IMG/VR virus record: IMGVR_UViG_3300043399_000596
Direction: 5' to 3' (one strand)
Length of the DNA stretch: 64,000 nt
DNA from: a virus
Taxonomy: Duplodnaviria; Heunggongvirae; Uroviricota; Caudoviricetes
Shown here: positions 2,653-56,372 of the stretch, in pieces
Layout: each line of letters begins with the position of its first letter
How positions within the stretch are numbered: the stretch's first letter is position 1
Notes under the pieces: model-generated
What the model was told of the DNA's origin: nothing
Database searches by the model: none
What the model saw: the letters and a program-made list of their open reading frames with translations, nothing else
Position numbers and translations under genes: made by a program

Positions 2653-2865
2653 ATGGCAAAACCTAAACTTACTGGCACTTTTAGTACCGAACATCAAATC
2701 TTCACTGATTTGGAAAATTACAAAGAATTTTGTGTAGATTTCGGTTATAAGTGGGACGAATCAACTTTGTATGACATGCGAAGTTTCTCATATCGTCAAT
2801 TCCAGAAAAAGACTTCAGGTAAAGAAGCAAAAAACAATTGGGATGATTTAGTCAAGGAAGTATGA
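2653..2865 (+). CDS. hypothetical small protein
   Basis: ORF track; ATGA overlap with next gene. Confidence 0.35.
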   Translation: MAKPKLTGTFSTEHQIFTDLENYKEFCVDFGYKWDESTLYDMRSFSYRQFQKKTSGKEAKNNWDDLVKEV

Positions 2866-3629
2866 AAATAGTATTGGTCACTGGTGGATTCGATCCAATT
2901 CATAGCGGTCACATTGAATATTTTCGTGCTGCTAGAAATTTAGGTGATCAACTAATCGTCGGCTTAAATAGTGACGAATGGTTGGCTCGTAAGAAGGGCC
3001 AACCTTTTATGCCATTATCTGAGCGCAGAACGATAGTTGGTAATCTAAAAGACGTTACTGCAACAATGGTATATAATGATGATGACAACTCAAGCTGTAA
3101 TGCAATTGAAGAATTGCTAAATCATTGTGGACCAAATGATGAAGTAATCTTTGCTAATGGTGGTGATCGCACAAAGGAAAACATTCCTGAAATGCGTATA
3201 TCTGATCCTAGAGTTAAGTTTGTTTTCAGTGTCGGTGGTGACAATAAAATGAATTCTAGTAGTTGGATCTTGCGTGAATGGAAGAATCCAAAAACTGAAA
3301 GACAATGGGGTTACTATCGTGTATTGCATGATGTACCTGGATGCAAAGTAAAAGAACTTACAGTAGAGCCGGGTAAAAAACTGAGTATGCAAAAACACTT
3401 CAAACGAAATGAATACTGGTTAGTTAGTGAAGGTAAATGTGAAGTATTATCTATGATGAACAATGGATACAGACTTCCAACTAAGATGCTAGAACAACAT
3501 AATTCTTATAATATTTCAGCAGGTGATTGGCATCAGCTAAGTAATCCATATACAGAACCTTGTCGTATTGTAGAGATTCAATACGGTGAAGCATGTATTG
3601 AAGAAGATATTGAAAGAAAAGATGCGTAA
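2862..3629 (+). CDS. sugar-phosphate nucleotidyltransferase (cytidylyltransferase-like, RfaE-II/TagD type) fused to a C-terminal cupin domain
   Basis: N-terminus 'VLVTGGFDPIHSGHIEYFRAARNLGDQLIVGLNSD' is the HxGH nucleotidyltransferase signature; C-terminal 'G..S.Q.H..R.E.W.V..G' cupin-like beta-barrel pattern. Confidence 0.6.
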   Translation: MKIVLVTGGFDPIHSGHIEYFRAARNLGDQLIVGLNSDEWLARKKGQPFMPLSERRTIVGNLKDVTATMVYNDDDNSSCNAIEELLNHCGPNDEVIFANGGDRTKENIPEMRISDPRVKFVFSVGGDNKMNSSSWILREWKNPKTERQWGYYRVLHDVPGCKVKELTVEPGKKLSMQKHFKRNEYWLVSEGKCEVLSMMNNGYRLPTKMLEQHNSYNISAGDWHQLSNPYTEPCRIVEIQYGEACIEEDIERKDA

Positions 3630-4809
3630 ACTATATTACATGGGTCTTGAGCCCTATAAAGCACGTTACACACTGCAACTAACAGAGTGGAATGAACGTG
3701 TGTTTAAACGCCGCGGCATTGATTATGTAGTTGTGCCCGGAGATACACTTTCAACTGACCAACAAATCGTAACAGGTCAAGTGCTTGACGCACATGGTCG
3801 TAGTTACTTTGGTATGAGTCAGTTGATGAATCTTGTTAAATTGATGAAGGAAGGACAGGTAACCAGTGAAGATGTTATCTATTTTGAAGACATGTTCCAA
3901 CCGGGCTTTGAAAGTTTGCCTTATATTCTTAATCAAGTGCCTGAGTCACATCGTCCGAGAATTTATGTACGTTGTTTGGCACAATCAATTGATCCTGACG
4001 ATTTTGTTCACGTTTGGGGAATGTCACGTTGGATGGGGTCGTATGAACAGATGGTATGTGAAGCAGTACAGCAATCTAATGGCGGTATTCTCGCAACTAA
4101 CGAAGAAATGGTCATGCACATGAAGATTGCAGGTTGGGAAGCTCCGATCTACAATATCAGTGGTCTAGCATTTAGTAAAGATGAAGTACGTGAACGTGTA
4201 GGACAAATAATTCCGTTTGGTGAACGCAAGCATCGAGTTGTGTTCAGTGCTCGTTGGGATCAAGAAAAACAACCTGATTTCTATATGGATCTAATAGAAG
4301 AATTTTACAAACGTCATCCAAATCGTTATGTAGAATTTGCTATTTGCAGTGGTGCGAAATTGCGTAGTAACAACGATAGTTATATGCAACGTACTAGGAA
4401 AATGATTGATGAAGGTAAAATTAAACTATACGAGGATCTAGGAAAAAATGATTACTACAGTATCGTTAACGATAGCCGTGTAGTTTTTAATTGTGCATTG
4501 CAAGACTGGGTATCTAATACAGTATCAGAAGCTGACGCCCTGGGTTGCAACGTGCTATATCCTGCTTATCGTAGCTTTCCAGAATCTTTTGCTAATGATG
4601 CAGAAAGGTTGTATATCCCCTGGTCTATAAACGATGCAATCGATAAGTTAGAAAAACTACTTGAGAAACCACATCACAATATTGGGAAAATAAGTGACTG
4701 GACTAATTTGACAGTAGACAGGATCTGTGATATAATCGAGGGGCGAGGCGAGCAATATTTGCGTATGTCTACCGATTATCGCAAACACACTAGAGAAGCA
4801 AAATATTAA
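3586..4809 (+). CDS. putative GT-B glycosyltransferase (GT4-like), paralog of 10161..11495
   Basis: Shared block 'VVFSARWDQEKQPDFYMDLIEEF' vs 'VLFVGRWEEGKNPELFIDLIEQT' matches the GT4 'GRl..eKg...li.a' C-terminal motif. Confidence 0.4.
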   Translation: MKHVLKKILKEKMRKLYYMGLEPYKARYTLQLTEWNERVFKRRGIDYVVVPGDTLSTDQQIVTGQVLDAHGRSYFGMSQLMNLVKLMKEGQVTSEDVIYFEDMFQPGFESLPYILNQVPESHRPRIYVRCLAQSIDPDDFVHVWGMSRWMGSYEQMVCEAVQQSNGGILATNEEMVMHMKIAGWEAPIYNISGLAFSKDEVRERVGQIIPFGERKHRVVFSARWDQEKQPDFYMDLIEEFYKRHPNRYVEFAICSGAKLRSNNDSYMQRTRKMIDEGKIKLYEDLGKNDYYSIVNDSRVVFNCALQDWVSNTVSEADALGCNVLYPAYRSFPESFANDAERLYIPWSINDAIDKLEKLLEKPHHNIGKISDWTNLTVDRICDIIEGRGEQYLRMSTDYRKHTREAKY

Positions 4810-5308: not shown

Positions 5309-6037
5309 GTGACAACAACTCAATTTTCATATCCGCGTAAGGAAGGATTCTATATGTCTTATAACAAAACAAAAACCGATCCCGAATTGGGTCAAAAAGT
5401 ACACGAACATCTAGTTAAGATGGGTGTTGAAACTCCGATCAAAGAACATAAAATGGTTCCAGATAGGAAAGCAAAGATTGAAGTAATTGAAAAACTCTTT
5501 GCTGATATCATGAAAACCCTTGATTTAGACTTGACTGATGATAGTCTAATTGAAACACCTAAGCGTGTTGCTAAGATGTATGTTAACGAAATTTTCTGGG
5601 GTTTAGATTATGAAGCATTCCCAAAATGCACGACTGTGGATAATAAGATGCAGTATAATGAAATGGTCGTGGAGCGTAACGTGTCCGTCCAAAGCAATTG
5701 CGAACATCATTTTGTCGTTATTGACGGTTTGGCAACTGTTGCTTATGTTCCTAAGCAAAGAGTACTCGGTCTGTCAAAGATCAACCGAATCGTGGAATAC
5801 TTCTCTAAGCGACCTCAAATACAAGAGCGACTTACTGAACAAATCTTCCACACGTTACAGTACATTCTAGACACCGAAGATGTAGCAGTTATGATTGACG
5901 CACAACACTATTGTGTGAAATCAAGGGGCGTGGAAGATACAGGTAGTTCTACTGTAACAGTTCGTTTGGGTGGCGGATTCAAAAACGATCCAGCAGCACG
6001 AAATGAATTCTTGTCTATCGCTAGGATGGGCAAATGA
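5309..6037 (+). CDS. folE: GTP cyclohydrolase I
   Basis: Conserved FolE core 'CEHHFVVIDGLATVAYVPKQRVLGLSKINRIVEYFSKRPQIQERLTEQI'. Confidence 0.85.
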   Translation: MTTTQFSYPRKEGFYMSYNKTKTDPELGQKVHEHLVKMGVETPIKEHKMVPDRKAKIEVIEKLFADIMKTLDLDLTDDSLIETPKRVAKMYVNEIFWGLDYEAFPKCTTVDNKMQYNEMVVERNVSVQSNCEHHFVVIDGLATVAYVPKQRVLGLSKINRIVEYFSKRPQIQERLTEQIFHTLQYILDTEDVAVMIDAQHYCVKSRGVEDTGSSTVTVRLGGGFKNDPAARNEFLSIARMGK

Positions 6038-7927: not shown

Positions 7928-8215
7928 TTGGTAAATATGGATAGCCGAATTCAAGAAACGTTAGACATTTTACAAGAAGAATGTGCTGAGGTTATCGTTG
8001 AGGTTAGCAAGTGCCGAAGATTCGGGCTTGCTAGCAAACATTATAAAACCGGATTAGAACATTCTATAATGTTGGAAAATGAAATAGGTGATGTACTTGC
8101 TATGGTTGACATTCTACTAGAACAGGGTGTAATATCACAATCAAACTTAGACATTGCTAAGCAAAATAAAAAAGAAAAACTGAAGAAGTGGTCAAACATC
8201 TATGTCACAAATTAA
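7928..8215 (+). CDS. possible MazG-like all-alpha NTP pyrophosphohydrolase
   Basis: 'LQEECAEVIVEVSKCRRFG...ENEIGDVLAMVDILLEQ' resembles MazG EExxE/D helices; weak. Confidence 0.3.
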   Translation: MVNMDSRIQETLDILQEECAEVIVEVSKCRRFGLASKHYKTGLEHSIMLENEIGDVLAMVDILLEQGVISQSNLDIAKQNKKEKLKKWSNIYVTN

Positions 8216-9068
8216 AGTAGCAGAATTATTTTATAGTATCCAGGGTGAAGGTCGTTACATGGGCGTACCAAGCGTGTTCTTACGCACGTTTGGTTGCAAC
8301 TTTACATGCGGCGGTTTTGGAATGCCCGCGGGAACTATTAGTGAAGAAAGAAACAAGATTGACGCAGACAATATTAAAAATTATAAAGATTTGCCCCTCG
8401 TATCTACAGGATGCGATTCATATGCTAGTTGGGATGTTAGGTTTAAGCATCTTTCTCCTGTACTCAGTACTGATAGTCTTGCCGAAAGCATTACTGATAT
8501 TCTTCCTTTCAAAACTTGGCGTGAAGAACACTTGGTAATTACAGGCGGTGAACCATTACTGGGTTGGCAACGTGCTTATCCTGATTTGCTGAATCACGAA
8601 AAAATGCAGGATTTGAAAGAGTTGACGTTTGAAACAAACGGTACACAAGATTTGAGTAAAGAGTTCAGACACTATTTGTTGAACTGGACTTTGAATCCCC
8701 GCGGTACTCCTGGTGGTCGCCGAGGTCGTGATAGCTTGACATTCAGCGTAAGTCCTAAACTAAGTAACAGCGGTGAAAAATGGGAAGATGCAATTCGTCC
8801 TGATGTTATCATGCAGTATGAGGATGTTGGTTACACTTACTTAAAGTTCGTAGTAGCTATACATGATGATGTTGACGAAGCATTAGAAGCAACTAATGAG
8901 TATCGCAACGCAGGATTTAAAGGTCCTGTATATTTGATGCCAGTTGGTGGTGTAGAAAATGTCTATAGTCTTAATAATCGCAGAGTTGCAGATTTAGCAA
9001 TGAAGCATGGATTGCGTTATAGTGACAGACTTCAAGTTCCATTGTTTAAGAACGAGTGGGGTACATGA
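8202..9068 (+). CDS. queE: 7-carboxy-7-deazaguanine synthase (radical SAM)
   Basis: N-terminus 'FYSIQGEGRYMGVPSVFLRTFGCNFTCGGFG' is the QueE Cx14CxxC-type radical-SAM signature. Confidence 0.8.
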   Translation: MSQIKVAELFYSIQGEGRYMGVPSVFLRTFGCNFTCGGFGMPAGTISEERNKIDADNIKNYKDLPLVSTGCDSYASWDVRFKHLSPVLSTDSLAESITDILPFKTWREEHLVITGGEPLLGWQRAYPDLLNHEKMQDLKELTFETNGTQDLSKEFRHYLLNWTLNPRGTPGGRRGRDSLTFSVSPKLSNSGEKWEDAIRPDVIMQYEDVGYTYLKFVVAIHDDVDEALEATNEYRNAGFKGPVYLMPVGGVENVYSLNNRRVADLAMKHGLRYSDRLQVPLFKNEWGT

Positions 9069-10164: not shown

Positions 10165-11495
10165 GAACATACGATAAGCGTATTGGTTTTTTAGTGAGTT
10201 ATCAAACATTGATACCTCACGGTGGTATTGGGCAATTCGCAAAAAGTTTTTGTGAGTTGATGGACGAACATAATATCAAAGTAGATATTATCACGGATAA
10301 AGAACCTAAGGATAATGATTTTGTAAAATCTCTAAAAGCTAATATTATTTCTCCGGTAAACTCATTGTCCTACACGGATCACAGCAACATCTTTATGTAT
10401 GGTGATACATTTTGTTATGAGCGCATGGCTAACTTCCGCAATGCGATTGTTAATGCGTTAGAACATAATTTGTATGATGCACTTATCTGTAACACATACG
10501 AAACGGTTCAAGTAGCAAGCACAATGGGTCTAGAAGATGTGATTCAAGTTATTGCGTATACTCATTTAGAAAGTCAAATTTTTAAAGACACAAAGAATCC
10601 TTTCTTACACAATACTAACGAATTGATGCGACACCAGCTAAGCATTCCTAATATTGATGTAGGTACACAAAGCAAATTCAACCAACTTAACTTAGATGAA
10701 TCTGCATTTCATCTTCCTATACCCATTACTGAACGTTCATTATTGGAAGAATATCACGGTGAGCGTGAGGGTGTATTATTTGTAGGACGATGGGAAGAAG
10801 GTAAAAATCCTGAGTTGTTTATTGATTTGATTGAACAAACTGGATTGCCTGCTAAAGTAATGACAAGCCCAAACGGTGTTAAAAAGTTTGAAGAACGCTT
10901 AAAAAAGATTGGTGCAACATATGATGTTCGTGCTAGTATTGTTGGACAAGAGAAAGTCGATTTCATTAAGAGTTCACGAATTGCTTTTAACCCAAGTGTT
11001 GTCGAGAGTTACGGGATGGCATTCTATGAACAACATATTCAACTACCGACATTAGTTTTAACAGAACAACGTTGGACTAAAAACTTTAATGACGATTTCT
11101 TTTATAGTTGCACAAAGAAGGACATGGCTAAACGTGCTAAAGATTTATATGACAGTTTTGAAAACGCAAGCACCTGGTATTTACTGGGTTCATTAGCCCA
11201 TGCTAGACAACAAGAATCAACAGTATTTCATAAATGGAATGAATGTTTCAATACGTTTAAGCCAAAAGAATCTAATAATAACACCGCAAAGATTTGCAGT
11301 GAGACCACAGTAAAATTAGAAGATTATGTTAAAGATTTGGATCGTAAGATTATTTGTATAGACGATATACGAAGCGTGTTAACGAACAAACATAAATTCA
11401 GAGTTATATATACTGATACCGATACTTATTTGACTAAAGACCCTTCATTTGAACCAACTGAAGAAAAATCAAATTCATTATTTGAGGGACTATGA
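10161..11495 (+). CDS. putative GT-B glycosyltransferase (GT4-like)
   Basis: 'GVLFVGRWEEGKNPELFIDLIEQ...SRIAFNPSVVESYGMAFYE' fits the GT4 C-terminal domain; paralog of 3586..4809. Confidence 0.45.
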   Translation: MRTYDKRIGFLVSYQTLIPHGGIGQFAKSFCELMDEHNIKVDIITDKEPKDNDFVKSLKANIISPVNSLSYTDHSNIFMYGDTFCYERMANFRNAIVNALEHNLYDALICNTYETVQVASTMGLEDVIQVIAYTHLESQIFKDTKNPFLHNTNELMRHQLSIPNIDVGTQSKFNQLNLDESAFHLPIPITERSLLEEYHGEREGVLFVGRWEEGKNPELFIDLIEQTGLPAKVMTSPNGVKKFEERLKKIGATYDVRASIVGQEKVDFIKSSRIAFNPSVVESYGMAFYEQHIQLPTLVLTEQRWTKNFNDDFFYSCTKKDMAKRAKDLYDSFENASTWYLLGSLAHARQQESTVFHKWNECFNTFKPKESNNNTAKICSETTVKLEDYVKDLDRKIICIDDIRSVLTNKHKFRVIYTDTDTYLTKDPSFEPTEEKSNSLFEGL

Positions 11496-12352
11496 CACAC
11501 AAAGTTTTAATTACAGGAAATTCTGGATATATAGGATCTTATCTTTCACAACTATTAATGAAAGATGACGAATTTCATGTAACAGGTTTAGATAAAGTAA
11601 AGCCACAAGTTCCCGTGCATACTCAGTACATTATGGATATCACGCAACCTTTTGTGATTCAACCTGAGTTTGATACAGTAATTCATTTAGCTGCCTTAGT
11701 AAATGTAGGTGAAAGTGAAAAAGTTCCCGTTGACTATTACACTACAAACTTGATTGGTACAATGAACGTACTAAATTTTATCGATGCAAAGAACTTTGTA
11801 TTTGCTAGTACTGGTGCTGCTGAAGGATGTAGTTCTGCATACGGTGTCAGCAAAAGAGCCGCAGAAGATGTTGTTTGGGAATTATGTAAGAAGCGCGGCA
11901 TTGACTATACAACATTTAGGTTCTATAACGTAGTAGGATTTGAAGGAATATTCCCTACTAACCCAGATGGACTTATGTTCAATCTCATGAAAGCCATGAA
12001 GACTGGCTCATTCACTATCTTTGGGAAAGACTACGAACAATCTTGGGATGGTACATGTGTGCGTGATTACGTGCATGTTAATGAAATTTGCGAAGCACTA
12101 AAATTAGCAATCAAAAATCCTAGTAACAAGATTGAATGTTTGGGTCACGGAGTAGGTCACACTGTCAGAGAAATGGTTAATATTTTCCAAGAAGTAAATA
12201 ACTGTGACTTTGATGTTAACTATGGACCTAGAAGAAAAGGTGACCTGCCATGTAGTGTTTTGGAAGAAGTGAGTCCATACATGATACAAAAGTATTCGAT
12301 TCAGGACCTAATGCGTGTTGACATTAAACAAAGACAAAAGTATACTGCATAG
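11492..12352 (+). CDS. NAD-dependent sugar epimerase/dehydratase (extended SDR)
   Basis: 'VLITGNSGYIGSYL' Rossmann GxxGxxG plus 'YGVSKRAAE' YxxxK catalytic motif. Confidence 0.7.
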   Translation: MTHKVLITGNSGYIGSYLSQLLMKDDEFHVTGLDKVKPQVPVHTQYIMDITQPFVIQPEFDTVIHLAALVNVGESEKVPVDYYTTNLIGTMNVLNFIDAKNFVFASTGAAEGCSSAYGVSKRAAEDVVWELCKKRGIDYTTFRFYNVVGFEGIFPTNPDGLMFNLMKAMKTGSFTIFGKDYEQSWDGTCVRDYVHVNEICEALKLAIKNPSNKIECLGHGVGHTVREMVNIFQEVNNCDFDVNYGPRRKGDLPCSVLEEVSPYMIQKYSIQDLMRVDIKQRQKYTA

Positions 12353-12353
12353 T

Positions 12354-13373
12354 ATGAATACACCTATTAAACGCATTGGTTTTGCCTGCAAGTGGGCAGA
12401 GATTAACAAAAAAGGCGAGATCGCCAGTACTGAAGGTTTGAATACTGGCGGTACTACTATGGCATGGGCAAAGCGCAACAGTCGTGCTACTGTCGAACAA
12501 AAAATCATTGATGTTGCTAAGACCAACATTATGAATACACATGCACTGATTAAGAAGGTAGCTACACTACCTGAACCACTGCGTATGTTACGCATCACTA
12601 GTGACATGCTTAGTTTCTATACACACGAAGACTGGCAAGGATTCTGGCAATCTACAAATACGCAAGACCAACTTGCACGTTGGTTCGCACCACTGGGCGA
12701 GACTGCACGTGCCAATAATGTTCGTGTTTCTTTTCATCCCGATCAGTTTGTAGTTCTTGCTAGTGAAAACGAAAATATTGTAAATAAGAGTATCGAGGAG
12801 TTTGAGTATCACACTGATATGGCTCGCTGGATGGGTTATGGCAAGACATTTCAGGATATGAAAATTAATGTTCATATCAGTGGTCGACAAGGTCCTGCAG
12901 GCATTCGCAAAGCGTATCAACGACTAACTCCTGAAGCACGTAACTGTATTACTATTGAGAACGAAGAAAATGCCTGGGGACTTGATGATTGCCTTACTCT
13001 ATCTGATTTGCTTCCAATTGTGTTGGACATTCATCATCATTGGGTGCGAGAAGGAGAATACTTGGAGGCATCCTCAGAGCGTGTTCAGCGGGTTATTGAT
13101 TCTTGGCGCGGCGTTCGCCCTACTCTACATTATTCTGTTTCACGTGAAGATATCCTTGTTGGTCATTGCACTAATACTCTTCCATGCCGCGAGAGCCTAA
13201 TCGCCGGTGGTACTAATAAACAAAAACTCCGCGCACATAGCGACTATTATTGGAATAATGCAGTAAATAATTGGGCAATGACATTTCATGATAAATTCGA
13301 TATGATGTGCGAAAGCAAGGCTAAGAATCTTGCAAGCCATAAACTATACGAGCAATACTATGGGAATATTTGA
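12354..13373 (+). CDS. uvsE: UV DNA damage endonuclease (UvdE/UvsE family)
   Basis: Aligns with Bacillus UvsE: 'IKRIGFACKW', 'VRVSFHPDQFVVLAS', 'INVHISGRQG', 'HSDYYWNNAV'; start moved to ATG right after the epimerase stop. Confidence 0.8.
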   Translation: MNTPIKRIGFACKWAEINKKGEIASTEGLNTGGTTMAWAKRNSRATVEQKIIDVAKTNIMNTHALIKKVATLPEPLRMLRITSDMLSFYTHEDWQGFWQSTNTQDQLARWFAPLGETARANNVRVSFHPDQFVVLASENENIVNKSIEEFEYHTDMARWMGYGKTFQDMKINVHISGRQGPAGIRKAYQRLTPEARNCITIENEENAWGLDDCLTLSDLLPIVLDIHHHWVREGEYLEASSERVQRVIDSWRGVRPTLHYSVSREDILVGHCTNTLPCRESLIAGGTNKQKLRAHSDYYWNNAVNNWAMTFHDKFDMMCESKAKNLASHKLYEQYYGNI

Positions 13374-21286: not shown

Positions 21287-21592
21287 TTGCACACTAACAC
21301 ACAAAAGGAGACAACAATGTCTGAATTCAACACACCAAAACTACCCGAAGTTAAATTTAATAAAAATGGTTACGAGATTCGCACTGAAATCTTGGCAATG
21401 GCAAAAGACCTCGTGGGTCAAGATTTTCACGTTAAGTTCCAAGGTTGGGAAATGACCGCAGAACGTGACGAAAAAACTGGACAGATTGTTAACAAAGTTA
21501 ACATGCCGGAGTTTCCAGGACTTGATAAAATCCTAGAAACTGCTGAAAAGATGTATGCTTTTGTAAATCAAGCTACACAAATTAAGAAGTAA
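21287..21592 (+). CDS. hypothetical protein
   Basis: SD 'aaaaggagacaacaATG'. Confidence 0.4.
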   Translation: MHTNTQKETTMSEFNTPKLPEVKFNKNGYEIRTEILAMAKDLVGQDFHVKFQGWEMTAERDEKTGQIVNKVNMPEFPGLDKILETAEKMYAFVNQATQIKK

Positions 21593-22349
21593 TCATAGTG
21601 GGGGTTGCTATATCAAAGATCCATTGCTCAAAGCATTGTGTCTGGATATAATCAAATGGTATATGACAATATCCATTTAACCCCCATTCTGTACCGAAGC
21701 TGTTCTTTGCAATGACATGCTTCATATCTAAATCATATCCCACAATAGCCATCGCATGACTGCCGATGGTTTTTTCATTATATGATGGATTTTTAACAAT
21801 ATAATCATCCTTGTCAAGGTACAAGAAACTCTCATAAAGATACATACCTGCGACAACTGGATAATTAGCATTGACAGCATCTAGCATATCTGATAGTGTA
21901 TATAGTCTCTCATACTTAGGGACGACTCTATAACTAGCATCACGATAGCATTCAGGTGTTGGCTTCACGTTGAACATGCCAATACTGTATGGCCATAATT
22001 CTTCTGTACAAATACCGAAATGTGCAACACCTTTGATTGCGCTGCGAATTTCAACTCCTTCGTCATATTCTGTTGTCCCCTCCAACAGTCTGCCGTTATA
22101 ATAAACAAACAGTCTGCTAAGTTGTTTAAAGGTGTCTGGGTATAGGCGGTTAGTTTCTAGTTCATAACAATTTGTAATTGCATTACCTACACAACTTCCC
22201 AAGTCAAGTTGATTTTCAACCACACTATCCCATTCACGCAAATCGACACTGTTTCTTAACTCAGTATTTTTAGGAGAATATTTGTAATCACGTTTGTCAG
22301 GTGAACTGGGTTTTAACGTGAAAAAACCTAATTTTATATTAATCGCCAT
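21582..22349 (-). CDS. papain-like (C1 family) cysteine peptidase
   Basis: Catalytic Cys 'QLDLGSCVGNAI', His 'GSHAMAIVGYD', Asn/Trp 'KNSFGTEWGLNGY'. Confidence 0.65.
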   Translation of the reverse strand: MAINIKLGFFTLKPSSPDKRDYKYSPKNTELRNSVDLREWDSVVENQLDLGSCVGNAITNCYELETNRLYPDTFKQLSRLFVYYNGRLLEGTTEYDEGVEIRSAIKGVAHFGICTEELWPYSIGMFNVKPTPECYRDASYRVVPKYERLYTLSDMLDAVNANYPVVAGMYLYESFLYLDKDDYIVKNPSYNEKTIGSHAMAIVGYDLDMKHVIAKNSFGTEWGLNGYCHIPFDYIQTQCFEQWIFDIATPTMITS

Positions 22350-22960
22350 GAGCCTGCCCTAAAAACCATACTAGCGCACTGATTAGGAACGCTTATAACA
22401 TAACTAGGTTTACCGTCAATTAATTCATTAGTATAAGGGTGAATTGTAATTTTACCAGAACCCTGTCCATATTCATCTTTGATGTAGTACACACGACCAT
22501 CTACACCTTGAGGTAGTGTAATAGTAACTGCGCTTGCACTATATACACCAATGTATTCATCCTCAAGTGTTGCTGTGTAGCTAGTTGTAGTGCCATATAC
22601 TTGAATCAAGTCCGCGCCTGTGGCACTAATTACAATGTCACCGGTACTTGAACTAATTAAAATGCCCGGGCCTGCAGTTAGGCTTAGAACACCTGTATTA
22701 GTTACAGTAAAACTAGCGTAATAACCACTAGACTGAAGATTGCTAATTTGAATGCCGTTTCCTGAAGTGGGCGTGACTTCAGTGACCACAAGATTTCCAT
22801 TAGCATATAAATCGTCAAAGCTCCCACTATTAAATGTAACATTAGCATTTGGTGATAGATCCTGTTCTAAAGAGATGACTCCATCAAGTACGTTGATGAA
22901 GTCACCTACCGTTACAACACCGTATTCTGTTTTACTTGTTGGATTAGATAGGTAACTCAT
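22334..22960 (-). CDS. fibre/structural protein sharing a C-terminal domain with 23828..24490
   Basis: Thr/Ser/Gly-rich; C-terminus 'YIGVYSASAVTITLPQGVDGRVYYIKDEYGQGSGKITIHP...IDG..SYVISVP' parallels the collagen-like protein's C-terminus. Confidence 0.5.
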   Translation of the reverse strand: MSYLSNPTSKTEYGVVTVGDFINVLDGVISLEQDLSPNANVTFNSGSFDDLYANGNLVVTEVTPTSGNGIQISNLQSSGYYASFTVTNTGVLSLTAGPGILISSSTGDIVISATGADLIQVYGTTTSYTATLEDEYIGVYSASAVTITLPQGVDGRVYYIKDEYGQGSGKITIHPYTNELIDGKPSYVISVPNQCASMVFRAGSWRLI

Positions 22961-22964
22961 TTAA

Positions 22965-23351
22965 TTACTCCGTTATCGGTGGCGTCGGAGCTGGTCCAGG
23001 TGGCATTGGCTCAGGTGTTGGCTCGGGTTTTGGCCAGTTCTTTTCTTTAACTGATCTAACTCCGTCAGCGAATCCTTTCTTATACGCCTGCTTCATCATT
23101 TGCTTTGTTGAATCCGGAGATTGAGAAGTTTGGGGCATTTGTGGTTTTGCCATGTAATCCCAATCCCAATCATAATAATAATCATCGTAGTACCAGTCAT
23201 CGTAATCCCAGTACCAATCATGGTAATACCAATCATCATAGTACCAATCATCATAGTACCAATAATGATGATATGGATAGTAATGTCCTGGTTTGTTAGG
23301 TTTGTTTTGCGGGCCTTGTGGTCTTCTAGGCATTCTTGGTTTGCGTGTCAT
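22965..23351 (-). CDS. Tyr/Trp/Asp repeat protein with basic N-terminus and Pro-rich C-terminus
   Basis: 'HYYPYHHYWYYDDWYYDDWYYHDWYWDYDDWYYDDYYYDWDWDY' encoded by a DNA-level tandem repeat; SD 'aaaggagaataaaATG'. Confidence 0.5.
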   Translation of the reverse strand: MTRKPRMPRRPQGPQNKPNKPGHYYPYHHYWYYDDWYYDDWYYHDWYWDYDDWYYDDYYYDWDWDYMAKPQMPQTSQSPDSTKQMMKQAYKKGFADGVRSVKEKNWPKPEPTPEPMPPGPAPTPPITE

Positions 23352-23369
23352 TTTATTCTCCTTTATAAA

Positions 23370-23840
23370 TTAACGCCATACATTTTTTATTTTCTCAATC
23401 ACCGATGTTTTTTCAGTAGTTTCAGTAGTGAGTTCAGGGGACGGATTTAGTTCATCCTGATTAACTGGTTCACTTATAGTTGTTTGTGTAGGGGTGGGCT
23501 GTTCTTCTACAACAATTACTTTGCCGATTTCTTGACTTACATCCTGAATGAGTTCTTTCACTTCTTCGTGAAGTTTCTGTTTTTCTAAATCAGGTCTAGG
23601 TTGGTTTAGAAAATCGATAAGCCTTTTGGCTCGTTGTATGATTTCTTCTTCATCTGGATACGGTGGTATTGCCGGGTAAGGAACACTTACTCTGCGAGTT
23701 CTTAGCATAGTTTCGTTATCTGCTAACCATTGATTATGAATATTAGCTCTGCGATTATTATAATCAGAGTAAGCTAACTCTTTTGCTAATTGCAATAATT
23801 CAAGATTAGTTGGATTTCGTGCTATGCTCATATTATCCAC
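23370..23840 (-). CDS. hypothetical protein
   Basis: ORF track, co-oriented in the minus-strand block. Confidence 0.4.
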
Positions 23841-24490
23841 CAGTTGTCCCCGTTACAAATAAGATTCACTGATTGATATGGTACCTCAATTACGTATTCG
23901 CTAGCACCATCAATTGTTTGCCAGTCTTCGGCCGGCACAATTGTGATTTTGCGAGTGCCCAATGGTGGACCCATCTCTGCCTTCACAACAATTTCGCAAC
24001 TAGAGTCGCAATCTGAGGGAAGTGTGATAGTAACCGGTCCAGTACTATTAACACCAATATAATAATCATCCACCGTAGCAGTGTAGTCTTGTGATACCAG
24101 AATTCTTTGGCATTCACAAGTACACTCTCCAGGCGGACCAGGAGGTCCTGCAGGGCCTGGTTCTCCTTGAGGGCCCGGTTCTCCAGACGGTCCAGGCGGT
24201 CCTTGAGGGCCTGGAGGTCCTGGTGGACCTGGTGGACAGTCACATGGCTCATTATTAACTCCTTGATTTATAATAACAGTATCATTGCCGGGCCCCGTGT
24301 TAATAGGAGATCCGCCAGCTAATACTTGTCTTGCTTGCTCAAATATTTTAGGATCTATTGGTTCACCTGAGTTTAATTTAAGCAATGCTTGATTAAGTTC
24401 TACTAATCTACGCTCTAAGCTATTCATAATATAATCCTTATTGAAAAATAGGCGAACCTTTGTGGGTCCGCCTATTACACTACTAAACAA
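23828..24490 (-). CDS. collagen-like triple-helix repeat fibre protein
   Basis: '[36 protein letters not shown]' G-X-Y repeats; globular C-terminus shared with 22334..22960. Confidence 0.6.
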
Positions 24491-24500: not shown

Positions 24501-25256
24501 TTATCTTACGTTGTTGCTTGTAGAGGATTGACCAACGCCAGCCATTGTGCCGAAGTTAACCATTCCTTGACGAGTTTCTTGTAGTTGACTCTGGAAAGCC
24601 TGAATCTGAGATTGTAGTTGTGCCCACTGACCTTGGAAGCCTGCTTGAATCTGGTTGAAACGAGCATCGTCCCAACGATCACGATAGTGACGGCGATCTT
24701 GTTCACTATTGACCAACTCTGTATTACGCTCAACTAAGCCACGGTTTAGATCGTGATACTTGAGATCATTGATTAGGTCACGAGTCTTTTCGTTCTCGTG
24801 ACTAATCTTGTCAGACAAGTATGTTGTCTGCTTGGCTAGTTCTGCTTGATTCTTGAGAGCTTGAATTTCTGTATCCTTAGTTACACCTAAGAATCCAGTA
24901 ACCATTGCCTGTTGTGCTGAAATGATTTGAGCACGGATGTCCTGTGTATCACGACCAATGTCGAAGAAACGAGCAGCAACTTTTGCGTCATGCTCAACCA
25001 GTCTGTCTGTTACACGATCGCCTTGATTGCCAACACGCTCACCGATATCGTATCGAGCGTCTTTGACATCACCACGAATGTTGAAAGATTCTTTTAAACC
25101 TTCCTTAACGATTTCGTTAGTTCCTCTTAGAACATCTGCATTAACACGGTCAAAACCTTTCATGTTTTCCAACTGAATTGTTGCGCGGTGCTCTGCTGCC
25201 TCACGGCGAATATCTGCATGTTGACCTGCTAAGTAATTTGTATCTACGTCTGCCAT
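24501..25256 (-). CDS. hypothetical protein (Q-rich C-terminus, coiled-coil-like)
   Basis: ORF track. Confidence 0.45.
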
Positions 25257-25389: not shown

Positions 25390-25415
25390 AAAAAAATAGC
25401 ACACCGAAGTGTGCT
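25390..25415 (-). terminator. rho-independent terminator (minus strand) downstream of the LuxR-type gene
   Basis: Hairpin 'agcacac-cgaa-gtgtgct' followed on the minus strand by a T7 run. Confidence 0.5.
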
Positions 25416-25436
25416 AATGAGATAGGCAGGAGACTT

Positions 25437-26312
25437 TTATTTTTTACTAAACAGTGCCAATTGTGTTCTGTTCTTTACATTAAATTTTTTAAGTACGATT
25501 CCAACGTGAAGTTTAACTGTACTTTCGCTAATATTCAATGTCTTGGCGATGACTTTGTTACTAGCTCCTCTTTCTCTTATCAGGTCTAGAATTTGTTGTT
25601 GTCTTTGAGTTAACTTAATTTGTCCAGGCTTAGCAATATCAGTGGTTCTTTTTGAACCAGATAACTTATCAAGAATCTGTTTAGGCCAATATGGTATATT
25701 TGCCCATTGTGCTGCACAGCCTTTTGTAGCCTCGTCTAAACCAAAATCAGTATGAACTGGTATGATACCGAAAATATTACTTTTTTGTAGCAACTTTATG
25801 GTTTCATATCGAGTATCTTTAGTAATAGCCATTGTCACAGTGACTGTGTGCATGAGATTGACTAATTTAGACATAGTGTTAACCATGTTAACGATTTCTA
25901 CAGCCGAACTATATTTCAATTCAGATTCGGCGAAACATATAGAATAAACACTATTGTCTAGTAGTGAGGGTAAGTCACTCCATTTTTTACAAATAACAAT
26001 TTTTCTAGGTTGTGCATCTAAATGTTTTTGAATTTCTGGAGTAATTTTCAATTTACACGGATCTCTATCGAAATACAAGTGAGTTGGTCTATCATCTATA
26101 GTCATTTGAACATCCTTCTTAATGTTTATAGACTTACTTACTGTGTTACCCCTTTTTAGATTGCCTTCGATAGTATAGGATGTACTTCCGTCATTTGTTG
26201 TAAAGGCTGTACTAGTACTACCTGTACTGTTGTACAGATGATACCAAACTAAACTTCCAGCATCACGTATAGGATACTGATCTTCGTTGAAATTTTCAGT
26301 GTGTGTGTTCAT
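25437..26312 (-). CDS. LuxR/FixJ-family HTH transcriptional regulator with unrecognised N-terminal domain
   Basis: C-terminus 'LTQRQQQILDLIRERGASNKVIAKTLNISESTVKLHVGIVLKKFNVKNRTQLA' is a GerE/LuxR HTH. Confidence 0.6.
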   Translation of the reverse strand: MNTHTENFNEDQYPIRDAGSLVWYHLYNSTGSTSTAFTTNDGSTSYTIEGNLKRGNTVSKSINIKKDVQMTIDDRPTHLYFDRDPCKLKITPEIQKHLDAQPRKIVICKKWSDLPSLLDNSVYSICFAESELKYSSAVEIVNMVNTMSKLVNLMHTVTVTMAITKDTRYETIKLLQKSNIFGIIPVHTDFGLDEATKGCAAQWANIPYWPKQILDKLSGSKRTTDIAKPGQIKLTQRQQQILDLIRERGASNKVIAKTLNISESTVKLHVGIVLKKFNVKNRTQLALFSKK

Positions 26313-31580: not shown

Positions 31581-32426
31581 ATGTTTATGTTAATCGTTGC
31601 CGCTCTGCTTGCTATCGTCATTGCAGTGGGCGTTTATGTTCTCTTTGAGAAAAGTAAATTGGGTATTCTCGGTGGCGCACTGTTGTTTATTGTTGTGCTA
31701 TTGTTCGAATCCTTCACTGTTGTGCCAGGTGGTCATGTAGGCGTGCAAGTTACGCTAGGTAAAATTAATCCTGAGGCACTACAAGAAGGTGCTCAACTTG
31801 TGAACCCTATCTCAAGTGTCCGTAACGTTGATGTTCGACTACAACGTGCTGAATTGAAAAACGCAAGTGCAGGTACCAAAGACTTGCAACAAGTTCACAC
31901 TGATATTGTAGTTAACTTCCGTCTTAGTGGTAACAAGGTCCCTCACATCTACAAAGAATTCGGCTTGAATGTGGATGACAAGGTTCTTGGCCCTGCACTG
32001 AATGAATCATTCAAGGCAGTGACTGCAAAGTATACCAGCGAAGAATTGATTACTAAACGTGACGAGGTTCGACAAGCAATTACTACACAAATTGCTAACA
32101 AAGTCGCACCCTTCGACATTGATATCAGTAACGTCAGTTTGGTAAACTTTGGTTTCAGTGTTGAATATCAGAAGGCTATTGAAGCGAAAGTTACTGCTAC
32201 TCAGGCTAAGCTGAAGGCTGAGCAAGACTTAGAACGTATTAAAGTTGAGGCCGCAAGTCGTATTGCACAAGCTGAAGGTGAAGCTAAAGCTATTGCGATT
32301 CAAGCGCAGGCTATTCAAAGTAATGGGGGTCAAGCGTATGTTCAACTGCAAGCAATTGAAAAGTGGGACGGTAAACTTCCAAACACTATGCTTGGTAACT
32401 CTACTCCGTTTGTAAACATTAAGTAA
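31581..32426 (+). CDS. SPFH/Band-7 (prohibitin/HflC-like) membrane protein
   Basis: N-terminal TM, then 'VVPGGHVGVQVTLGKINPEALQEGAQLVNPISSVRNVDVRLQRAE' PHB domain and a coiled-coil C-terminus. Confidence 0.75.
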   Translation: MFMLIVAALLAIVIAVGVYVLFEKSKLGILGGALLFIVVLLFESFTVVPGGHVGVQVTLGKINPEALQEGAQLVNPISSVRNVDVRLQRAELKNASAGTKDLQQVHTDIVVNFRLSGNKVPHIYKEFGLNVDDKVLGPALNESFKAVTAKYTSEELITKRDEVRQAITTQIANKVAPFDIDISNVSLVNFGFSVEYQKAIEAKVTATQAKLKAEQDLERIKVEAASRIAQAEGEAKAIAIQAQAIQSNGGQAYVQLQAIEKWDGKLPNTMLGNSTPFVNIK

Positions 32427-36443: not shown

Positions 36444-37640
36444 ATGTCCGAAGAACTAAAACCAATCAATCATTGCAGTTTTTGCGGTAACAGCAAAGAT
36501 GTAGTTAAAAAATTAATTGTGGGTGATAACGTTGCCATTTGTAGCGACTGTGTTTCATTGTGTGAGGATCTTATACAAGATGATCAATCCATAAAAGAAG
36601 ATACATTGCCAGAGTATTACCCAGACAAAATTAAAAGTTATTTAGATACTCACATCATAGGGCAAGATGATGCCAAAATGGTGCTAAGTGTTGCTATAGC
36701 TAACCACTATAAGAGAATTACTAACCCACCCAAAAATCTTGAAATGCAAAAGGGCAATGTATTAATATTAGGGCCAACTGGTTCCGGTAAAACGTTGTTG
36801 GCGAAAACTGCGGCAAAATATCTACAAGTACCATTTGTAATTGCTGATGCTACTAGTTTAACCGAAGCAGGATATGTAGGTGATGATGTAGAATCCATGA
36901 TTAATATGCTACTAAATGCTGCAGGTGGTGATAAGGCCCTTGCAGAACGCGGTATTGTTTTCATCGATGAGATTGACAAAATTGCCCGCAAAGGAGAATC
37001 GACTAGTATTACCCGTGATGTATCAGGTGAGGGAGTACAACAAGCATTACTTAAACTTGTTGAGGGAACTATTTGTAGAGTTTCTGGTCAAGGTGGGAGA
37101 AAACACCCAGGAGCAGATATGTTAGAAATTGATACTAAAAACATTCTGTTTATTGCCGGTGGTGCTTTTGTAGGATTGAAAGAACTGGTGCAAAAACGTA
37201 AAGACGGTGGAAGTATCGGTTTCAGTGCTACTGTTAAAGACGTTAAACTAGAAGGTTCGTTGAAGGAAGTTACTCCCGATGATCTTACTAAATTTGGCAT
37301 GATTCCAGAATTCATCGGTAGATTTACTACAACAGTGAGTATTGATGAATTGTCGAAGGAACAATTAGTCAAAATTCTCACTGACGTTAAAAACAATTAT
37401 ATCAGTCAATATTCGTACTTGTTTGAACTAGACGGAATTGAGTTGACATTCACCCCTGATGCTTTAGAACAAATTGCAGAAAATACGCTAAGTTTAAAAA
37501 CAGGTGCACGTGGATTACATACAGAAATCGAACGAGTATTAATGTGTCATATGTATAATACTAGAATATATAAAGAAAATAACATAAAAACACTAAATAT
37601 TACAAAGGAGCAGGTTATTAACCCTACAATATTAATATGA
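36444..37640 (+). CDS. clpX: ATP-dependent Clp protease ATP-binding subunit ClpX
   Basis: N-terminal C4 zinc finger 'CSFCGNS...CSDCVSLC', Walker A '[13 protein letters not shown]', '[10 protein letters not shown]' Walker B. Confidence 0.9.
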
Positions 37641-37963: not shown

Positions 37964-39850
37964 ATGAGCAAAGTCATCGGTATCGATTTGGGTACCACAA
38001 ATTCATGCGTAGCCGTTATTGAAAACGGCGTTTCAAAAATCATCGAAAACAGCGAAGGTGCACGTACTACCCCTAGTATCGTTGCATATACTAGTGACGA
38101 AGTTTTAGTCGGTGCTAGTGCTAAACGTCAAGCTGTGACAAATCCTAAAAATACAATCTATGCGGCTAAGCGTTTGATAGGTCGTAAGTTTAAAGAAGAA
38201 GCAGTTCAAAAAGATATTGACTTAATGCCATACACTATTGTTGAAAATAGCAACGGTGATGCATGGATCAAGGCACAAGACAAAAAACTTGCACCTCCTC
38301 AAGTATCTGCTGAGGTTCTTCGCAAGATGAAAAAGACTGCGGAAGATTATTTGGGGCATGAAGTAACTCAAGCAGTTATTACAGTTCCCGCATACTTTAA
38401 CGACAGTCAACGTCAAGCTACTAAAGATGCAGGTCGTATAGCAGGTCTAGAGGTTCTACGTATTATTAATGAACCAACTGCGGCTGCTCTAGCATACGGT
38501 GTAGACAAACAAGATACAAAAGACCGAAAAATTGCAGTGTATGATTTAGGTGGCGGTACTTTTGACGTTTCCATTATCGAGATTGCAAACGTTGATGGCG
38601 ATAAACAAATTGAAGTTCTTTCAACAAACGGTGACACATTCCTTGGCGGTGAAGACTTTGACCAACGCATTATGGACTTCTTGGTTGATACCTTTAAACA
38701 AGAACAAGGTATTGACTTGACTAAAGATGTATTGGCACTACAGCGTTTAAAAGAGGCTGCAGAAAAGGCAAAGATTGAATTGTCTAGTTCTGCACAGACA
38801 GACGTTAACTTGCCCTACATTACTGCTGATGCAACAGGACCTAAACATTTAAACATTAAAATCACTCGTGCTAAGTTGGAAAGTTTAGTTGACGAGTTGA
38901 TTCAACGTAGTATTAAACCTTGTAAACAAGCACTTCAGGATGCTGGTGTTACTGTCAGTGAAATCGATGAAGTTATTCTCGTCGGTGGTATGACACGTAT
39001 GCCTAAGGTACAAGAAGTTGTAGAACAGTTGTTTGGTAAAGCACCTCGTAAGGATGTTAACCCAGACGAAGCTGTAGCCGCAGGCGCCGCTATTCAAGGT
39101 AGTGTTTTATCCGGAGACAGAAAAGACGTTCTATTACTTGATGTTACACCACTAAGTTTGGGTATCGAAACAATGGGCGGTGTGTTTACTAAGTTAATTC
39201 AAAAGAACACAACTATTCCAACTAAAGCTAGTCAGACATTCTCTACTGCTGACGACAATCAACCTGCAGTAGATATTAAAGTCGGTCAAGGTGAGCGTGA
39301 ATTGTTTAAGTACAACAAACTATTAGGTGAGTTTAAACTTGACGGTATTGCGCCCGCGCCACGCGGAATGCCCCAGATTGAAGTTACCTTTGATATTGAT
39401 GCTAACGGTATCATGCATATTTCTGCAAGAGACAAAGGTACAGGTAAAGAAAACAAAATCACTATTAAGAGTGACAGCGGACTTCATGAAGCAGAAATTC
39501 AACGAATGGTCCGTGAAGCGGAAGAAAATGCAGAAGCTGATAAAAAGATGGTTGAACTCATTCAAGCACGTAATCATGCAGAATCAGTGTTGAATAATTA
39601 CAGCAATGATTATAAGAAGTTCAAGGATCAAATCACATCTGAAGAAAGTGAAAAGATTCAAACTGCAATCGATGCATGTGAAGTTGCTATTGCGGGAGAC
39701 AATACTGAAGCTATTCAGCAATCAGTAAACGATCTACATCAGGCAATCGGACCTGTGCTTGTTAAGAAGCAAGAGTCTGAGGGTTCTGGAAAGAATACAC
39801 AGTCAGTAGATGAGACTGTAGTAGATGCAGAAGTAAAAGAATCTGCGTAA
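37964..39850 (+). CDS. dnaK: molecular chaperone DnaK (Hsp70)
   Basis: '[16 protein letters not shown]', '[12 protein letters not shown]', '[14 protein letters not shown]'; 628 aa full length; SD 'aaaggagaacacaATG'. Confidence 0.95.
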
Positions 39851-43964: not shown

Positions 43965-44585
43965 ATGAGTCTAGTTCCAATCGTTGTCGAACAAACTGCA
44001 AAGGGTGAGCGTAGTTATGACATTTACAGCCGCCTATTGCGTGACCGTGTTGTCATGCTTGAAGGTGAAGTTCATGACCAAATGGCAAATTTGATTGTTG
44101 CCCAATTGCTTTTCCTAGAATCAGAAAACCCCGACAAAGATATTAGCATGTATATCAACAGCCCAGGTGGTCAAGTAACTGCTGGTCTAGCAATCTATGA
44201 TACGATGCAATTTATTAAGTGTGATGTTCAAACTATCGTATTGGGTCAGGCTTGTAGCATGGGTTCGTTCCTAGCACAAGCAGGTGCTAAGGGCAAACGA
44301 TTTGTTCTCCCAGAAGCACGTACTATGATTCACCGTGTTAGTTCTGGTACTCCTAGTACACGAGGTAGTGTTCATGTACAAGAACTTCAATTTGAAGATG
44401 CCAAGCGCACATTTGAAGAAAGTCAACGTATTAACAAACGTTTGACCGAACTCTATGTGAAGCACAACTCCGCAGGTAAGTCTTACGAAGAATTGTTTGA
44501 AACCATGAAGTTTGATACATTCTTGTCAGCACAGGAAGCGGTTGATTGGGGTCTCGCAGACAAAGTGGTCGAGAAGCGAGAGTAA
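43965..44585 (+). CDS. clpP: ATP-dependent Clp protease proteolytic subunit ClpP
   Basis: '[21 protein letters not shown]', active-site Ser in '[10 protein letters not shown]', His in '[10 protein letters not shown]'. Confidence 0.9.
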
Positions 44586-52026: not shown

Positions 52027-52578
52027 TCACAAATGTCTACCCCAACGGGTGTTGATGTGAGACCAATTCATTATCTTCCAGGTATTTTCTAGATATTCTT
52101 TTTTATCAGCTAGGTAATCAAGTGTCCAGGCATGTTCCCACCAGTCAACTAAAATTAATATGTCGTCACGAACTTCATGGTTTACGATTGTCTTTATTTC
52201 ACCGGTAAACGACATATATATCCAAGCAGAACCCTGAAGTTTCAATGCTTCTTCTTTGAATACTTCTTTGAAGTCACGCCACCATCCGTACTTTCTTTTT
52301 ATAAGATTCAGTACGGGTCCGTTAGGGGTATTATTTTCTTGTGGCTTACGAAACTGTGAAAAGTAGATATTATGTAGGAAAGCGCCAGCGTAATTAAAAT
52401 CGCTGTCGCCTTCTTTGTTCTTGTAACGTTTAACATACCCCTTTGCTAGGGTATCGTAATGTAATTCTAAAGTGGCTTTAGAAAGTACCGGACTTAGATC
52501 GGTGTAGGAATATTGGAGTGGTTCTAACTCTATCTGTTTCCTTCGGGATTCTTCTAATTTCTCTACAACGTCATACAT
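52027..52578 (-). CDS. Fe/Mn superoxide dismutase
   Basis: 'LEPLQYSYTDLSPVLSKATLELHYDTLAKGYV' and 'DWWEHAWTLDY' Fe/Mn-SOD signatures. Confidence 0.8.
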   Translation of the reverse strand: MYDVVEKLEESRRKQIELEPLQYSYTDLSPVLSKATLELHYDTLAKGYVKRYKNKEGDSDFNYAGAFLHNIYFSQFRKPQENNTPNGPVLNLIKRKYGWWRDFKEVFKEEALKLQGSAWIYMSFTGEIKTIVNHEVRDDILILVDWWEHAWTLDYLADKKEYLENTWKIMNWSHINTRWGRHL

Positions 52579-56369: not shown

Positions 56370-56372
56370 TGT

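Follow-up and report, generated by a model that had tools for sequence, protein, structure and literature searches.

A small minus-strand gene at 22965..23351 in a 64,000-nucleotide stretch of Caudoviricetes DNA (IMG/VR record IMGVR_UViG_3300043399_000596; the whole stretch is called the window below) encodes a 128-residue protein built around a block of Tyr, Trp, Asp and His. We refer to it as the aromatic-aspartate repeat protein, or YWD protein. From sequence comparison, it appears to found a previously undescribed family of about 40, new at the sequence level, which, judged by its gene neighborhoods, is dedicated to a virion fiber module of uncultured T4-like aquatic phages. The YWD gene is exclusively linked to a collagen-like fiber gene and a coiled-coil gene. 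As to function, we infer a fiber-associated, nonenzymatic adaptor or cement, the reading that we favor, although it is somewhat more apt to be wrong than right. The novelty thus claimed covers the protein family and its composition, not a mechanism.

An aromatic-aspartate core between charged arms

Translation of the gene returned the 128-residue product quoted in the original prediction, with the basic amino-terminal arm (+7) and proline-rich tail (11 Pro) described there; the strong Shine-Dalgarno sequence noted upstream of the ATG is also in place (Table 1). The aromatic block had been put at about 45 residues. Its near-pure composition is borne out, with 43 of the 44 residues from 23 to 66 being W, Y, D or H (Y18 D13 W8 H4 P1), and its exact length is 44. 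The same four residues make up a background of 13.3% in the long open reading frames (ORFs) of the window, and the richest other 44-residue stretch, among all ORFs of at least 60 aa, holds 17 of them. Charge comes in blocks along the chain (N-terminal arm, +7; core, −13; middle, +5; tail, −2), and the YWD protein is therefore a block polyampholyte.

The core is periodic at both levels. Residue identity at a lag of 5 is 54%, compared to 15 to 32% at other lags, and the tandem repeats claimed for the underlying DNA were recovered by Tandem Repeats Finder as an array at 23180-23263 with a period of 15 and 5.2 copies. A separate repeat search of the core DNA gave 6 copies with a spacing of 15 or 21 nt. 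The 20-mer TACCAATCATCATAGTACCA, quoted originally, has just two exact copies, at 23227 and 23242, where chance would give 0, and two adjacent 15-nt units are still identical. AlphaFold2, run on a 10-sequence family alignment, returned a mean predicted local distance difference test score (pLDDT) of 54.7, with values of less than 50 in the core and a single helix at residues 81 to 102; on this model, the YWD protein is probably largely disordered.

Coding frame and selection

Comparison with homologues identifies 22965..23351 on the minus strand as a genuine gene under purifying selection. Between close relatives, nonsynonymous divergence (dN) is 0.23 to 0.36, with synonymous divergence (dS) greater than 1 or saturated. 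Where dN/dS could be computed, it was 0.20 to 0.27, compared to 0.14 for p208, a fiber/adaptor protein of the same operon, and 0.02 for the operon's papain-like peptidase; in the same genome pair, identity was 50 to 57% for the YWD protein and 81 to 90% for the other two. Gaps in the alignment of YWD homologues are all whole codons. Among 12 family loci examined, all 12 keep AAGGAG or AAGGA at an equal distance upstream, and in all 12 the sense frame is the sole frame without interruption. The preference of the original prediction for the minus frame is thus upheld.

Could the true product instead be the Ile/Val/Pro-rich mirror ORF on the plus strand (23121..23450), or the region a noncoding repeat? 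In the window, the antisense codon-mirror frame runs through 80 codons with no stop, and it is mostly open opposite most homologues. Composition dictates as much: codons for Tyr, Asp, Trp and Pro, when reversed, never make stops. The mirror frame contains one to six stops in 10 of the 12 homologues, has no conserved start or ribosome-binding site in the 12 homologous loci, and runs counter to the operon. Set against purifying selection on the sense frame, with every indel in frame, this alternative is scarcely credible. Readthrough or frameshifting from the YWD gene into p208 was also considered and rejected; spacing and frame vary by locus, and gene order is variable.

A family with a shared four-part plan

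A word-indexed protein search found 3 YWD homologues, and an exhaustive hidden Markov model (HMM) search of 1.84 billion representative proteins found 9. A 12-sequence profile then gave 35 clusters, and 3 sequences from fetched loci were added, for a family of 40 sequences. The IMG/VR members (in the loci designated L049 and L057/58) were reached indirectly, via loci carrying p208. A scan of IMG/VR and JGI metagenomes with a 4-sequence alignment yielded pattern matches and no relative confirmed by tblastn, a failure that probably reflects low-complexity masking; the 10-sequence family alignment offered no conserved block suited to collection scanning.

The suspicion that no characterized protein resembles this one held up. 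Pfam, PHROGs and NCBIfam returned no match to the YWD protein (10 family members have no Pfam match even at an E value of ≤1), and a profile search of the PDB gave nothing meaningful. Neither tblastn of the YWD protein and p208 nor megablast of the window from 20 to 28 kb found a match among the 50,697 phage records of INPHARED, and a look at the literature on tyrosine-rich phage proteins and on assembly GCA_902729665 found nothing relevant. What needs amending is the impression of a singleton: the protein has homologues, none of them characterized, in a family of about 40.

The 40 sequences, of 106 to 169 aa, share one plan. A basic, proline-rich arm, for which MxR/QxP... serves as the defining start, opens the chain and has a net charge of +3 to +11 in 40 of 40. 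The core that follows consists of W, Y and D (with E, H or C), spans 14 to 44 residues, and carries a net charge of −3 to −13; that of the window is the longest and most acidic in the family, and several members lack His in the core. Next comes the motif [YF]xx[GL][FY]x[DA]G, present in 39 of 40 members and typically reading AYQQGFKDGW, in which Y90, G93, D96 and G97 are near-invariant (AYQxGFxDG, a GxxxG-type small-residue pattern). A proline-rich tail with at least 4 Pro closes the chain in 32 of 40. Segregation of charge is kept across the family, with sequence-charge-decoration z scores of −1.1 to −5.4 relative to shuffles. The window protein has the arm, the core, the helix motif and the fiber-module location that define the family.

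Comparison of repeat number, as had been suggested, revealed variation, both in the range of core lengths and in one particularly close pair: P0132 and the protein of L057 (positions 5630-6004) are identical save for one 6-residue unit, WDDDRY, present in frame in one of them. Core length, therefore, changes by in-frame slippage.

A fiber module of T4-like phages

All genes of the module in the window lie on the minus strand, in the order regulator, p251, collagen-like protein, p156, YWD, p208 and peptidase, with a terminator-like hairpin between the regulator gene and the fiber operon. When fetched loci were searched by tblastn and blastp, the same gene set was found around YWD homologues, in shuffled order. 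From the collagen-like gene onward, the window and L002 read collagen, p156, YWD, p208, peptidase; L008 and L013 read collagen, YWD, p208, peptidase; L005 and L011 read collagen, p208, YWD, peptidase; and L010 reads collagen, YWD, p156. The order in L014 and L064 is collagen, YWD, peptidase, with a 48-aa ORF between the first two in L064, and in L003 the YWD gene comes last, before convergent p101/GNAT genes. Every contig with enough flank has the YWD gene beside the collagen-like gene and/or p208. Where the flank suffices, the collagen-like gene and p251 are constant partners, p208 is usual, and the papain-like peptidase is frequent. The co-orientation with a fiber gene and a peptidase gene noted originally is thus real (PF01391 and PF00112), and the linkage recurs in many independent metagenomic contigs, although the peptidase is not obligatory.

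This linkage bears on the idea that the YWD protein is a host-directed effector unrelated to fibers, such as an acidic DNA mimic, an anti-defense decoy, or an intracellular condensate-forming factor. One can see the appeal, given a highly acidic block, small size, fast evolution, and a module that has its own regulator and is surrounded in the window by accessory genes. Strict association with fiber genes has, however, been maintained in at least 15 distinct contexts despite the shuffling of gene order, and the DNA mimics known to us are folded and not dominated by Trp or Tyr. We consider an effector of this kind very unlikely.

Several lines of evidence point to the module encoding virion fibers. 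The C-terminal domain of p208 was modeled by AlphaFold2 with a pLDDT of about 90, and its Foldseek matches include the N-terminal docking domains of CBA120 TSP4, a baseplate protein of Klebsiella phage KP1, the capsid spike of Pseudomonas phage Pa223, and T4 gp9; in BFVD, the matches were "Baseplate structural protein Gp9/Gp10" and pectate lyase and collagen tail fiber proteins. The C-terminal domain of the collagen-like protein is itself 42 to 47% identical to p208. Homologues of the collagen-like protein carry 6 to 24 GXY triplets, nearly always bracketed by CxC(PP)...GxCxCxC across the clade, and these Cys motifs around a short GXY stretch suggest a short Cys-knotted collagen, a design that resembles the minicollagens of cnidarians. 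In the 276-kb contig L016, the module comes directly after Portal_T4, the Peptidase_S77 prohead protease and Gp23, from which we take the clade to be T4-like. More than 1,000 metagenome homologues of p208 exist, at 65 to 80% identity; none was found in cultured phage records or GTDB species genomes, and its absence from the latter means that there is no prophage or host clue.

Other members of the module recur as well. Homologues of p156 occur within the same module in L002, L006, L010, L016, L018, L029 and L057. The C-terminal ~30 residues of p251 (window 24501-24590) are near-invariant across 34 homologues. The collagen-like gene probably starts at the ATG at 24427 (MNSLERRL) rather than at the listed TTG at 24490, since its homologues start at the equivalent of the former. 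The regulator lies upstream of the module in L002, L013, L016, L018, L044, L064 and others and is conserved across the clade; its best NCBIfam match is CsgD, with 56 bits over residues 161 to 287 against a cutoff of 250 bits. L064, a 697-kb contig, has two genes after the module on the strand opposite to it (11576-13047, minus strand), one of the Asp/Asn beta-hydroxylase family (PF05118) and one of the fatty-acid desaturase family, an arrangement not conserved in other loci.

The peptidase raises two further possibilities. Its translation contains Gln47, Cys53 and the His and Asn motifs of the papain family, and there is no prodomain, the catalytic Cys53 lying just 53 residues into the chain. 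A weak Peptidase_C39_2 match (3e−4) falls below threshold, and around the homologue in Burkholderia phage FLC9 all the surrounding genes encode hypothetical proteins. The YWD protein might be a partner of this enzyme, either as a substrate cut into aromatic peptides or as a decoy or inhibitor occupying an aromatic-preferring S2 pocket until lysis. In L004, L005, L011, L012, L014 and L064, the C1 peptidase gene comes directly after the YWD gene, and the lack of a prodomain fits; papain-family enzymes prefer bulky hydrophobic P2 residues, and staphostatin-type inhibitors are co-transcribed with their protease. However, no module peptidase is found in the YWD loci L057/L058, nor downstream of the gene in L003, and there is none in L020, L038, L054, L059 and L062, which carry Tyr-rich ORFs. 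Conversely, the peptidase occurs in L046-48, L050, L053 and L055, where there is no aromatic mini-ORF. Because the two occur without each other, a partnership seems improbable.

The peptidase might also be imagined to release a product from a precursor like those of ribosomally synthesized and post-translationally modified peptides (RiPPs), with the aromatic repeats cross-linked by a maturase and freed by a C1/C39-like enzyme. A short, repetitive aromatic core behind a basic "leader" and the weak Peptidase_C39_2 match are in keeping with this. We consider the idea highly unlikely, because no conserved maturase (radical-SAM, P450 or YcaO) lies within 10 kb on either side across the window, L002, L016 and L064; the only Radical_SAM matches are below threshold and 14 kb off in the window, or at the far edge of L064. 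Furthermore, a conserved helix and tail follow the core, unlike the layout of leader and core, no export gene is present, and no leader peptidase is constantly adjacent, the C1 peptidase being absent from the L057/L058 and L003 modules.

Aromatic mini-proteins in sister modules

The module seems to reserve a place for a mini-protein of ultra-aromatic composition. Of 39 distinct module architectures sampled, from IMG/VR and other contigs, 35 have at least one small ORF on the same strand with at least 15% Tyr plus Trp, and the tyrosine content of tiny sister-module ORFs reaches 50%. Three kinds were seen in the sampled modules: the YWD family (L049 and L057/58) and two others, which we call Type A and Type B (Table 1). 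Type A proteins are 60 to 118 aa long, with a Tyr/Pro/Arg-rich first half, the motif SQI..NQSI.N.G.M.DV.QNS, and sometimes a proline-rich tail. Type B proteins have 41 to 53 aa, 33 to 50% Tyr plus Trp, and 2 to 4 Cys, as in MYYPRYYPYYHRRYYDYYSPYGYGCYPYYDRYCPYDSYYPYYRY. The loci of the YWD family have no second aromatic ORF. The C-terminal tail of p251 and the Type A motif look alike, and in L027 and L051 both take on an "NTG" form; the two may thus represent a shared docking motif.

These sister proteins also speak to metal binding as the function. Tyr phenolates, Asp carboxylates and His imidazoles might chelate Fe(III) or Ca(II), loading the fibers with iron or bridging them. The core is built of Y, D, H and W, the phage is aquatic, and Fe(III) sites of the transferrin and FbpA type use Tyr, Asp and His as ligands; the "Ferrojan horse" idea, of iron on marine phage tails, offers a parallel. 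However, the sister mini-proteins in the equivalent position are rich in Tyr, Pro and Arg and are not acidic, so any shared function would rest on Tyr, not on the chelating set. In addition, no spacing like that of a known metal site was found in the core, from which His is absent in several members. This makes metal chelation a doubtful proposal, about on a par with a partnership with the peptidase.

Adaptor or cement

How might an adaptor or cement work? We imagine that the AYQxGFxDG helix, with its GxxxG-like small-residue face, would act as a specific docking or oligomerization element, and the remainder of the chain as multivalent "sticky" arms. The Tyr/Trp/Asp core (−13) could engage basic and proline-rich segments by way of cation-pi, pi-pi and aromatic-proline interactions, its partners being the N-terminal arm (+7) and tail of the protein itself and perhaps the collagen stalk, where this is GPP-rich. 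Such a protein would gather the short Cys-knotted collagen fibers into bundles, anchor them, stiffen them or make them adhesive, with the core growing or shrinking via in-frame slippage of units of 15 to 18 nt. The metal binding, surface adhesion, dityrosine cross-linking and phase separation first proposed for the protein all appear compatible with its composition.

Several observations weigh against this reading. The presence of the YWD family shows no correlation with how proline-rich or how charged the collagen stalk is; GPP-rich stalks are seen whether or not the family is present, and L049 combines a YWD protein with a Pro-poor stalk. In most relatives, the stalks contain no Lys or Arg, so simple electrostatic binding between core and stalk is unlikely. 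Homology between YWD and Type A proteins was unsupported (hhalign probability, 0.65%), so the equivalence of YWD and sister proteins is positional and compositional only. A LuxR-type regulator dedicated to the module would be unusual ahead of core virion genes. Finally, low AlphaFold confidence on an alignment of 10 sequences is no proof of disorder.

A factor acting in assembly only, and staying outside the virion, is the closest competitor. It would serve as a chaperone or scaffold, maintaining the solubility and register of collagen-like or p208 chains while they trimerize. The gene lies immediately beside fiber genes in all loci, and the protein is small, nonenzymatic, without a predicted fold, and faster evolving than p208 and the peptidase (dN/dS of 0.2 to 0.27 versus 0.02 to 0.14). 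The role would have its counterpart in T4 gp57A, gp38 and the Tfa family, which are encoded by small genes next to fiber genes and are needed for fiber maturation. There is no sequence or profile similarity between them, however, and the YWD protein has no Pfam, PHROG or NCBIfam match to the Tfa, gp38 or gp57A families of tail fiber chaperones; gp57A is devoid of aromatic residues, the opposite of the YWD composition. Extreme aromatic content also predicts stickiness, not solubilization. The assembly-only role and that of a cement are computationally indistinguishable, and we consider the former unlikely, if less so than any other competing explanation.

One can envision a bolder version of the cement, in which Cys-knotted mini-collagens, the coiled-coil protein and ultra-aromatic mini-proteins (YWD and the sister peptides with 40 to 50% Tyr) form a cross-linked proteinaceous appendage in an abundant clade of these phages, the mini-proteins serving as viral cement or matrix, possibly hardened by disulfides or dityrosine. 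Such an appendage would be a viral counterpart to spore coats, hair matrix or nematocyst walls and an undescribed route to making or tuning a phage adhesion organelle; for now it is a quite unlikely, speculative scheme. If the YWD protein acts as cement or adaptor in the simpler sense, it would be a new virion building block, a disordered, charge-segregated aromatic "sticker" protein, and would provide a handle on a fiber module that is represented by more than 1,000 metagenomic sequences and by no cultured phage. As a compact natural design of aromatic/acidic and basic blocks, it is relevant to studies of bio-adhesives and of phase separation. Even with no function assigned, the family can serve, along with its module, as a marker for an uncharacterized clade of T4-like phages.

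Comparison with known systems

The nearest analogies to the YWD protein appear to be functional, not evolutionary. CotC and CotU of the outer spore coat of Bacillus subtilis are very small, nonenzymatic proteins rich in Tyr and charged residues that enter high-mass assemblies (PMC7944565). The likeness lies in tiny, Tyr-dominated proteins of a spore surface layer that have Cys-rich proteins and, in the exosporium, collagen-like ones for neighbors. CotC, however, is Tyr/Lys/Asp-rich, with no Trp, no charge-segregated plan, no helix motif and no Pro tail, and both are bacterial sporulation proteins with no sequence relationship to the phage protein; the HMM search of 1.84e9 representatives returned only small metagenomic proteins of the YWD family, and homology to CotC/CotU was rejected.

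For collagen, a precedent comes from fibromodulin and related small leucine-rich proteoglycans, whose N-terminal Tyr(-sulfate)/acidic domain, in the account given by a later paper, binds collagen and promotes fibrils (Tillgren et al. 2016, cited in PMC5618690). As described there, a disordered stretch of Tyr, Asp/Glu and Pro would offer a precedent for an aromatic-acidic segment on a collagen triple helix. The fibromodulin domain is eukaryotic, extracellular, dependent on Tyr sulfation, and attached to leucine-rich repeats; it has no homology to the YWD protein, for which collagen binding is putative.

High-glycine-tyrosine keratin-associated proteins, of 6 to 9 kDa and Tyr-rich with Cys, act as matrix or cement between the fibrous proteins of hair. 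They recall especially the 41- to 53-aa Tyr/Cys mini-ORFs of the sister modules, by analogy only, and differ in being Gly-rich, not acidic, and mammalian. Pentapeptide-repeat proteins (PF00805) share the five-residue period; the YWD protein has a repeat region of just 44 residues, no A(D/N)LXX consensus, no Pfam match, and, in the AlphaFold2 model, no strand in the core and no beta-helix, and membership was rejected. A collagen repeat (PF01391) in the YWD protein itself was likewise dismissed, there being no GXY run and no Pfam match, whereas the neighbor at 23828-24490 qualifies.

Other features of the window

Table 1. Coordinates of the features discussed (window positions unless a locus is named)
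Feature	Position	Strand	Basis
YWD coding sequence (128 aa, stop codon included)	22965..23351	-	ORF list and translation
Shine-Dalgarno AAGGAG, 6-nt spacer to ATG	23358..23363	-	Read from sequence; kept in family loci
YWD N-terminal arm, basic, proline-rich (aa 1-22; +7; 6 Pro)	23286..23351	-	Composition; family charge
YWD aromatic-aspartate core (aa 23-66; net -13; pentapeptide periodicity)	23154..23285	-	Degenerate 15-nt tandem repeat
YWD spacer, basic, Pro/Gln/Ser-rich (aa 67-80)	23112..23153	-	Sequence poorly conserved, length variable
YWD predicted helix (aa 81-102) with QAYKKGFADGV (aa 88-98)	23046..23111	-	AlphaFold2, low confidence; family motif
YWD C-terminal tail, Pro/Glu/Thr-rich (aa 106-128; 11 Pro)	22968..23036	-	Composition
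Mirror ORF, Ile/Val/Pro-rich, 109 aa	23121..23450	+	ORF list
LuxR/GerE-type helix-turn-helix regulator, heads module	25437..26312	-	PF00196, 5e-16
Terminator-like hairpin and T-run (8-bp stem, T7 tail)	25397..25416	-	Consensus match only
p251, 251-aa coiled-coil-like protein	24501..25256	-	No family match; conserved C-terminal tail
Collagen-like fiber protein, 12 GXY triplets, Cys-flanked (CDCPP...GECTCEC)	23828..24490	-	PF01391, tail fiber PHROGs
p156, 156 aa; helical N-half, acidic Thr/Pro-rich C-half	23370..23840	-	No family match
p208, 208-aa predicted fiber/adaptor protein, gp9/gp10-like C-terminal domain	22334..22960	-	AlphaFold2 and Foldseek
Papain-family (C1) cysteine peptidase, last operon gene	21582..22349	-	PF00112, 2.4e-10; phrog_16701
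Sister aromatic ORFs (Type A/B)	L018 5758-5985; L024 7642-7776, 7791-8078; L029 5112-5372
Sister aromatic ORFs (Type A/B)	L045 7633-7782, 7791-8072; L016 11285-11434, 11450-11659; many others
SPFH/Band-7 protein	31581-32426	+
ClpX	36444-37640	+
DnaK	37964-39850	+	66% identical to gammaproteobacterial DnaK
ClpP	43965-44585	+
Fe/Mn superoxide dismutase	52027-52578	-
CsgF	55824-56369	+
CsgG lipoprotein	56373-57170	+	PF03783, 7e-50
Signal-peptide protein with Curlin repeats	57207-58157	+
FecR-domain protein	58159-59268	+
Second Curlin-repeat protein	59265-60527	+
DUF4337 protein	Between second Curlin-repeat protein and CHASE2-cyclase	+
CHASE2-cyclase	61554-63617	+	40% identical to Melnitz, 38% to HTVC008M

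The window is phage-like, with many ORFans and no tRNA genes, and encodes an ATP-dependent ligase, a 5′-3′ exonuclease and UvdE in addition to the genes listed in Table 1. H2O2 derived from superoxide dismutase has been implicated in the cross-linking of Tyr in spore coats (PMC7944565); by that analogy, the superoxide dismutase of the window might be relevant to the Tyr-rich proteins, a lead only. A weak radical-SAM-like ORF lies at 8202-9068 on the plus strand.

A block resembling curli/type VIII secretion genes occupies 55824-63617 on the plus strand. The curli modules of Melnitz and the pelagimyophages were reported to be without csgA and csgB (PMC9004378); unlike these, the block in the window includes candidate amyloid subunits. 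Sugar-nucleotide and glycosylation genes lie at 2862-4809 and 11492-12352, also on the plus strand, and comprise a cytidylyltransferase/mannose-6-phosphate isomerase fusion, a glycosyltransferase-like protein and an NAD-dependent epimerase/dehydratase.

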